DNA of 64,000 nucleotides from Escherichia coli. Its GTDB lineage: Bacteria; Pseudomonadota; Gammaproteobacteria; Enterobacterales; Enterobacteriaceae. Below, in pieces: positions 17,437 through 17,768 of this stretch. Position 1 is the stretch's first letter. Each line of letters begins with the position of its first letter. The translations under genes were made by a program, and so were the position numbers. The notes under the pieces were generated by a model, which saw only the letters and a program-made list of their open reading frames with translations, was not told where the DNA came from and did no database searches. The DNA lies in NCBI RefSeq assembly GCF_050320075.1, contig NZ_CP190018.1; one strand, written 5' to 3'.

Positions 17437-17508
17437 TTGTGATTTTGACATTGGTCTATGCGCTCCATTCACGAAAATTGCGCGGATATTTATTTTGTGA
17501 AGGCTATT

Positions 17509-17526
17509 ATCCTACATCTGTAAGAA
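17509..17526 (+). promoter_or_regulatory. EvgA-box-like inverted repeat upstream of ydeP (ATCCTACA-TC-TGTAAGAA)
   Basis: Matches the reported EvgA consensus TTCYTACA-NN-TGTARGAA with one mismatch; about 240 bp upstream of the ydeP start. Confidence 0.55.
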
Positions 17527-17768
17527 AATCCGCGCACAATTGAAGCCAGAGTCTTATTTTTTATATTGAAAAATATGTTAATTTAAACACTATGAGAGAT
17601 GATGCTTAATTTATCGTATTTAATCTTTTGTTTAACGATAATAGATTAAAATAGAAAGAGAGTAGTCCCCTACTCTTATATATCCATGTTGACGATAATC
17701 CCTTTGTATATACTGTGCATCATCGCTATTACAAATCCTAATAATTCATTTCCACACAGGATAAGCAG

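Follow-up and report, generated by a model that had tools for sequence, protein, structure and literature searches.

Comparison of the ydeP and safA promoters of Escherichia coli points to a fixed EvgA-dependent layout rather than a larger inverted repeat around the ydeP box

EvgA/EvgS is the Escherichia coli homologue of BvgA/BvgS. The EvgAS acid-resistance cascade is entered through ydeP and safA-ydeO, whose EvgA boxes were recognized two decades ago; an 18-bp inverted-repeat EvgA consensus, TTCYTACANNTGTARGAA, was reportedly set out by Masuda and Church in 2003 and by Itou et al. in 2009. Activation by EvgA was described for ydeP and ydeO (PMC11210196) and likewise in a second study (PMC5706723), in which evgAS and safA-ydeO were found to be restricted to E. 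coli. At BvgA-activated promoters, head-to-head BvgA dimers occupy one strong upstream inverted-repeat site and then weaker ones at 22-bp intervals along one face of the helix until they reach or overlap the -35, which is itself a poor element in these promoters (PMC7250471). The ydeP and safA promoters are thus already known, and the analysis reported here refines them without adding a new element.

The DNA analyzed, called the window below, is a stretch of 64,000 nucleotides that contains the E. coli ydeQ-ydeP-safA-ydeO region (RefSeq gene names for ydeQ, ydeP and safA). The open reading frames and EvgA boxes are as follows.

16522-17436, open reading frame, ydeQ
17769-20048, open reading frame, ydeP
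20296-20493, open reading frame, safA
20568-21329, open reading frame, ydeO
17509-17526, + strand, ydeP EvgA box ATCCTACATCTGTAAGAA, one mismatch to TTCYTACANNTGTARGAA
20167-20184, + strand, safA-ydeO EvgA box CGCCTACAGCTGTAAGAA, two mismatches to TTCYTACANNTGTARGAA

Several complete E. coli chromosomes matched a 3.2-kb stretch around the annotated elements at 100% identity, and this stretch was found in 5388 of 5426 complete E. coli genomes; at a threshold of at least 90% identity, the module was present in ~98% of these 5426 genomes. The ydeP and safA promoters of the window are the K-12 versions apart from a few substitutions. The consensus scan confirmed both sites proposed in the initial annotation, an EvgA-type palindrome upstream of ydeP and a second site upstream of safA, and these were the only two consensus matches in the 64 kb. 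The box alone is weakly specific, as at least two matches with three or fewer mismatches occurred in 18 of 100 shuffles of the window. For both promoters, the box match, the position upstream of EvgA-induced genes, the orientation toward them and the common geometry were all found, and the two sites are nothing different in kind from the known EvgA-box promoters. What is added to the known boxes is a fixed distance from box to -10 element and a set of conserved spacer positions, which the original footprinting papers may already contain.

The initial annotation had aligned about 50 bp around the safA site with the ydeP element. This alignment held up, extending without gaps over 57 bp with a score of 49, far above the scores of shuffled sequences (mean 18.9, maximum 28). 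From the box to the transcription start, 56 of 84 columns were identical and no insertions or deletions were present. Identity was 41/66 in the part after the box (binomial p ~7e-8, background 0.30) and 14/60, a background value, in the 60 nt that precede the boxes. The similarity has its upstream limit right at the box and is lost gradually toward the transcription start. The elements that lie within or close to the aligned stretch are listed below.

20186-20194, + strand, CTCCGCTCA, safA counterpart of the right arm of the ydeP repeat, 7 of 9 positions identical and in the same register
17550-17558, + strand, promoter-proximal element AGTCTTATT of ydeP, -42 to -34
20208-20216, + strand, promoter-proximal element AGTCCTATT of safA, at the same offset as AGTCTTATT
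17576-17584, + strand, extended -10 TGtTAATTT of ydeP, in register with safA
20234-20242, + strand, extended -10 TGtTATATT of safA, hexamer at after-box index 53
17592, + strand, inferred ydeP start (A), from the -178 leader in PMC11210196
about 20249-20250, + strand, predicted safA start

The TCTTA core of AGTCTTATT is the same as the TCYTA core of the EvgA left half-site and lies 42 bp downstream of the primary one. It had been proposed that the two promoters share an extended module beyond the core box. The common stretch does run well past the 18-bp core, but the description as a module flanking the box was not retained, and the stretch is better read as a complete EvgA-dependent promoter, from box to extended -10. 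We consider it probable (roughly 0.7) that ydePp and safAp are known EvgA-activated sigma-70 promoters in which the common stretch is the entire activator-dependent promoter with one fixed layout. In such a layout, a high-affinity 18-bp EvgA box near -74 would be followed by a 23-nt spacer with CA at +9/+10, then by A(G/A)TCYTATT at about -42 to -34, which would occupy the usual place of a -35 element and carry a TCYTA half-site core, and finally by an extended -10 (TGnTAATTT or TGnTATATT) fixed 53 nt after the box. With the putative start as +1, the ydeP box covers -83 to -66, with its center at -74.5.

Natural variants of both promoters were collected from five diverse E. coli genomes, a divergent Escherichia (L007) and ~70 metagenome and Logan contigs. 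The metagenome scan used a 17-mer from the ydeP leader, and ~70 true ydeP promoters were left after chance matches had been removed by BLAST. This gave 37 unique ydeP upstream sequences, including the divergent contigs L139 and L141, and 26 unique safA upstream sequences. The comparison was limited to variation within Escherichia because no box and no related upstream DNA accompany the ydeP orthologues outside E. coli, those of Edwardsiella (84-87% amino acid identity) and Yersinia rohdei (67%). The boxless upstream DNA agrees with the confinement of evgAS and safA-ydeO to E. coli (PMC5706723).

The L007 YdeP protein is 96% identical to that of E. coli, and its intergenic region ~77% identical. 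The box half-sites, the CA, GTCYTATT and the extended -10 were essentially invariant in both promoters, L007/L141 included. In the ydeP box, changes among E. coli variants were confined to position 1, A8 (one variant) and the central NN, with A7 changed as well in L007/L141, and the safA box was conserved across all 26 unique variants, L141 included. The ydeP element at 17550-17558 was invariant save for one singleton metagenome sequence, and the safA core GTCCTATT was invariant in all variants, again including L141. The safA counterpart of the right arm, CTCCGCTCA, showed a single C>T change (L089, L099) and was unchanged in L141. The TGn and hexamer of ydeP were kept in L007/L141 with n changed from T to C, and the safA extended -10 reads TGcTATATT in L141.

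The position of the ydeP start was derived from a published probe. In K-12, the ydeP 5' leader probe spans -178 to +10 relative to the ATG, and the gadA probe begins at the gadA start site, as judged by a -27 probe together with a +1 to +54 fusion (PMC11210196). The K-12 position -178 is the A at 1,586,664, 7 nt past TAATTT, and corresponds to 17592 in the window, where the leader is 1 nt shorter. We infer the ydeP start at 17592 from this probe coordinate, which PMC11210196 does not explicitly name as a start site. A full-text literature search returned nothing usable on EvgA footprints, start sites or ChIP-exo data, with the primary footprinting papers outside its scope.

A consensus scan for sigma-70 promoters had a single match, at another place:

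17540-17567, + strand, alternative sigma-70-like promoter TTGAAG-16-TATATT

In RpoD genomic SELEX, this match lies under a peak of RNA polymerase holoenzyme and is listed as the 'constitutive promoter' predicted for the ydeQ/ydeP spacer (PMC3946193); its TTGAAG is aligned with CTGAAG in safA. Were it the working ydeP promoter, transcription would start near 17574, the center of the EvgA box would lie near -56, and the downstream extended -10 would be irrelevant. We regard this as improbable because the -10 of TTGAAG-16-TATATT loses its key A in L007/L141 (TTTATT), the hexamer in register in safA is not kept (TCTATT in the window, TCTTTT in most strains, TCCTGT in L141), and both extended -10 elements survive in L007/L141 with only the n of TGn altered. 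In addition, the four other EvgA promoters have no -10-like hexamer at that place but do have one at index 53/54, and the 178-nt leader length (PMC11210196) fits the downstream promoter.

The proposed layout was compared across six K-12 promoters, those of ydeP, safA, yegR, emrK, frc (frc/yfdW) and yfdX (proximal box), each anchored at its box and oriented toward the gene. Two controls were used, the distal box of yfdX and the emrK box in the orientation facing evgA. Pairwise identity in register after the box was 31-43% among the six, with ydeP-safA at 62%, as compared to 17-29% for the controls. With the neighbor pairs ydeP/safA and frc/yfdX left out, the summed in-register identity was 310, against 238.5 ± 13 for shifted registers (z ~5.4), and none of 3544 controls reached 310. 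The CA at +9/+10 after the box was present in all six promoters, and A(G/A)TCYT at positions 24-29 in four of them (ydeP AGTCTTATTT, safA AGTCCTATTT, yegR AATCCTATTC and emrK AGTCCTCTGT). The promoter-proximal element AGTCTTATT recurs at the same offset in yegR (AATCCTATT) and emrK (AGTCCTCTG). In each of the six, a -10-like hexamer starts at after-box index 53/54, five by scan and ydeP by reading TGn-TAATTT from the sequence, and this distance places the box center near -74 in each.

A half-site PWM made from the boxes gave its best forward sums at 20 and 42 bp downstream of the primary half-site, 22 bp apart (z 2.7-2.9, with ~2.9 at the offset of AGTCTTATT), although the scores are weak (~1-2 bits) and a z of ~2.8 is roughly what chance gives as the best of 148 offsets. 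No partner half-sites in the reverse orientation were seen in the PWM scan.

The ydeP and safA promoters lie only 2.66 kb apart, and their 62% identity is far above that of any other EvgA pair. The neighbors frc and yfdX also have a common block of their own, CTCTCTGATT. The extra similarity of ydeP and safA (62% versus 31-43% for other pairs) most likely reflects common descent of neighboring promoters. A stronger version, that the similarity is solely a decayed local duplication, unconstrained beyond the box and the -10, is unlikely in our view. The positions common to ydeP and safA are also invariant within each promoter across lineages, L007/L141 included, and the unlinked yegR and emrK have some of them at matching offsets. 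The register test still gives z ~5.4 without both neighbor pairs, and the similarity ends exactly at the edge of the box. A BLAST search of E. coli genomes for further copies of the module returned only the ydeP copy, with an E-value limit that was too strict even for the safA copy.

The frc and yfdX promoters form a second pair of adjacent, similar EvgA promoters, in which the in-register block CTCTCTGATT begins 23 nt after the box and CAAA occupies +9 to +12. In the K-12 locus (L180, minus strand), the boxes are at 12507 (frc) and 13501 (yfdX proximal), and yfdX has a second box 38 bp upstream.

The initial annotation had also placed the ydeP box inside a larger inverted repeat, with near-complementary arms aaaattgcgcggat (17474-17487) and atccgcgcacaatt (17528-17541). 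The core of these arms is the following pair.

17479-17487, -113 to -105, left arm TGCGCGGAT, specific to ydeP
17528-17536, -64 to -56, right arm ATCCGCGCA, within the spacer common with safA

The arms do flank the box, and their core was verified as a perfect 9-mer pair with 40 nt between, extending without gaps to 11 of 12 positions over 17479-17490 and 17525-17536. The outer AATT pairs only by way of a 2-nt bulge. The last two bases of the right arm are the CA that is present in all six EvgA-box promoters. The window as a whole holds 30 perfect inverted repeats that are 9 bp or longer and have loops of 3-60 nt, versus ~13 in shuffles. When the flanks of the ydeP box were shuffled (60 nt on the upstream and 40 nt on the downstream side), a flanking repeat of at least 9 bp had P ~0.01. 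The 9-bp repeat is real, yet only marginally unexpected, having been picked post hoc. Folding was unexceptional (DNA z -2.55 for the 78-nt stretch, RNA z -0.76 in context).

If the 18-bp box were the center of a larger functional inverted repeat, the arms could lengthen the EvgA site or be the site of a second dimeric protein, or the DNA could form an extruded hairpin or cruciform. The perfect repeat with its local P of ~0.01, the DNA fold, and the invariance of the arms in most E. coli, where they are slightly better kept than their neighbors, would be in keeping with such a role. The geometry is not: the box sits off-center between the arms, 21 nt from the left and 1 nt from the right, extrusion is disfavored by a loop of 40 nt, and the arm sequence is unlike the EvgA half-site. 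Nor is there an equivalent at the five other EvgA promoters. The safA promoter has no counterpart of the left arm, and its best flanking repeat is 4 bp; the best elsewhere are 4 bp (emrK, yfdX) and 7 bp (yegR, frc), none of them significant.

Natural variation was also at odds with a paired function. Three independent substitutions were found in the left arm (T9>A in L178, C3>T in L085/L066, G2>A in L139) and one in the right arm (C3>T in L007/L141). Among 13 distinct variants of the arm pairs, the four changes left no pair altered on both sides; two pairs became G-T and two were broken, and two of the four substitutions would keep G-U pairing in a plus-strand RNA fold. In L007/L141, 12 bp inserted between left arm and box shift the left arm and alter the arm spacing, with box, spacer and -10 intact. 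Neither compensatory pairing nor conserved spacing nor recurrence at co-regulated promoters was found. We therefore saw no evidence in these sequences that the outer repeat acts as a pair, and a larger functional inverted repeat around the box, as originally proposed, is very improbable. The right arm appears to be simply part of the constrained spacer, and the left arm a ydeP-specific upstream block.

The repeat resembles an intrinsic terminator in that a G+C-rich 9-bp repeat lies 43 nt past the ydeQ stop codon, and it differs in having a loop of 40 nt, no T-run behind the stem on the plus strand, and no covariation. A terminator scan found no plus-strand terminator-like site for ydeQ in 17380-17800. 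The terminator, cruciform and RNA-structure readings of the 9-bp repeat were dropped, as scan, folds and covariation gave them no support. A possible third copy of an arm, TCGCGCAATTT (20110-20120), is the reverse complement of AAATTGCGCGA, of which only the 10-mer AAATTGCGCG is in the left arm of ydeP; it was rejected as polymorphic, since K-12 and many other strains have TTTCGCAATTT there. By eye, TAAGAAAATCC bears some likeness to RcsB/BvgA-type sites and the loop some to a GAD box; both were set aside as too weak.

The variable columns in the natural variants numbered 4 of 18 in the arms versus 24 of 47 in the neighboring non-box sequence (Fisher's exact test, p = 0.05). By this comparison, each arm may have some function of its own, and that of the right arm is probably one in common with safA, which has CTCCGCTCA at the same place. 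One explanation along these lines is that the arms are two separate sites whose complementarity is coincidental, the left-arm block GAAAAnTGCGCGGAT (-118 to -105) being the operator of another ydeP regulator and the right arm a contact for EvgA or RNA polymerase. The lower variation of the arms fits this, and in L007/L141 the left-arm block stands conserved with a diverged flank on one side and the insertion on the other; it is also kept in L142 despite replacement of the DNA farther upstream. However, the block matches no known E. coli motif, and the left arm takes three of the four arm substitutions. The YdeO box, ATTTCA (PMC4222967), is absent, the likeness to a GAD box is 10/20 by eye in a T-rich sequence, and the excess of conservation reaches only p = 0.05. 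Two separate sites are thus an explanation to which we give a small probability.

Two further hairpins were observed in the region. A perfect 12-bp hairpin (TTCTTCTGCTGT and ACAGCAGAAGAA, 7-nt loop) at 20062-20092 lies 14 nt past the ydeP stop codon. It was kept in all E. coli variants, has a different loop in L141, and is without a trailing T-run; despite the absent T-run, it is probably the ydeP terminator. A 7-bp hairpin (AGAGTAG TCCC CTACTCT) at 17659-17676, in the middle of the 177-nt ydeP leader, was flagged as terminator-like on the minus strand and was largely kept across lineages.

In protein searches with YdeP, identity dropped directly from 96% or more in E. coli and Shigella to 84-87% in Edwardsiella. 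No match was named as another Escherichia species, and the sole divergent lineage, L007/L141 (96%), was deposited as E. coli. These matches suggest that the ydeP-safA-ydeO island may have been acquired or assembled within the E. coli lineage. In L007 (3560-4000) and in L141, ydeP is not preceded by the fimbrial genes ydeQRST, of which only the final ~35 bp of ydeQ are left.

Several rearranged copies of ydeP were also found. On the plasmid pKFu015_2 (NZ_CP147132.1; L183, 2400-2720) and on a metagenome contig (L122), ydeP lies directly downstream of a Tn3-like IS3000 transposase. On the plasmid, the junction cuts the promoter just upstream of ATTGAAAAATATGTTAATTT, so that the extended -10, start and leader are kept, and the EvgA box and upstream sequence are lost. 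Six plasmid locations were reported in E. coli genomes. In two Logan contigs (L056, 3001-6198, and L057, 3001-5580; proteins P0036 and P0015), natural deletions join ydeP, in frame, with ydeN (sulfatase) or with ydeO; safA is removed in both, and ydeO is also gone in the ydeN fusion. These deletions recall strain MP1, which lacks safA-ydeO (PMC5706723). A metagenome-assembled genome labeled 'Candidatus Nanosynbacter' (JARKOR010000108.1, L006) carries a ydeP whose protein is 100% identical to that of the window, with a K-12-type promoter, and this ydeP is almost certainly E. coli contamination.

In mechanism, the ydeP and safA promoters would have their closest analogue in the BvgA promoters of Bordetella pertussis (Pfha, Pptx and Pfim3). 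The likeness lies in a strong box at -74, the lack of a good -35 and the strictly fixed spacing of the EvgA promoters, together with half-site-like matches 20 and 42 bp downstream, which are weak, of a single orientation and not significant alone. The difference is that the half-sites of the EvgA box are arranged as TTCYTA..TARGAA and not as TAAGAAATTTCCTA, and that multi-dimer binding of EvgA is conjectural here. Under the favored reading, that of a complete EvgA-dependent promoter, phosphorylated EvgA would bind the box and could then extend downstream along one helix face over weak sites about 20-22 bp apart, in the manner of BvgA. Alternatively, EvgA might contact RNA polymerase from a rigidly phased position. 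By both routes, the spacing and several spacer bases would be constrained in every EvgA promoter.

More tentatively, and with less chance of being right than wrong, all EvgA promoters might follow a rigid, as yet undescribed layout of a -74 box, an invariant CA and a TCYTA near -40 that replaces the -35, on which phosphorylated EvgA would polymerize as BvgA does, with the proximal protomer substituting for the contact of sigma region 4 with the -35. If EvgA does polymerize in this way, the right arm of ydeP would be part of the site of a second EvgA dimer.

With this analysis, the notion that the ydeP box sits in a larger palindrome, tempting as it is, falls away as an over-interpretation and gives place to a more general and testable description, in which six EvgA promoters are in register from box to -10 with a few invariant spacer positions. 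If footprinting confirms the layout, it would show how an activator of the NarL/BvgA family at -74 reaches RNA polymerase and, as the box alone is weakly specific, it would also aid the prediction of true EvgA targets. The gain is incremental, and the chief lead is the fixed -74 geometry, which may mean that EvgA binds downstream of its box as BvgA does.
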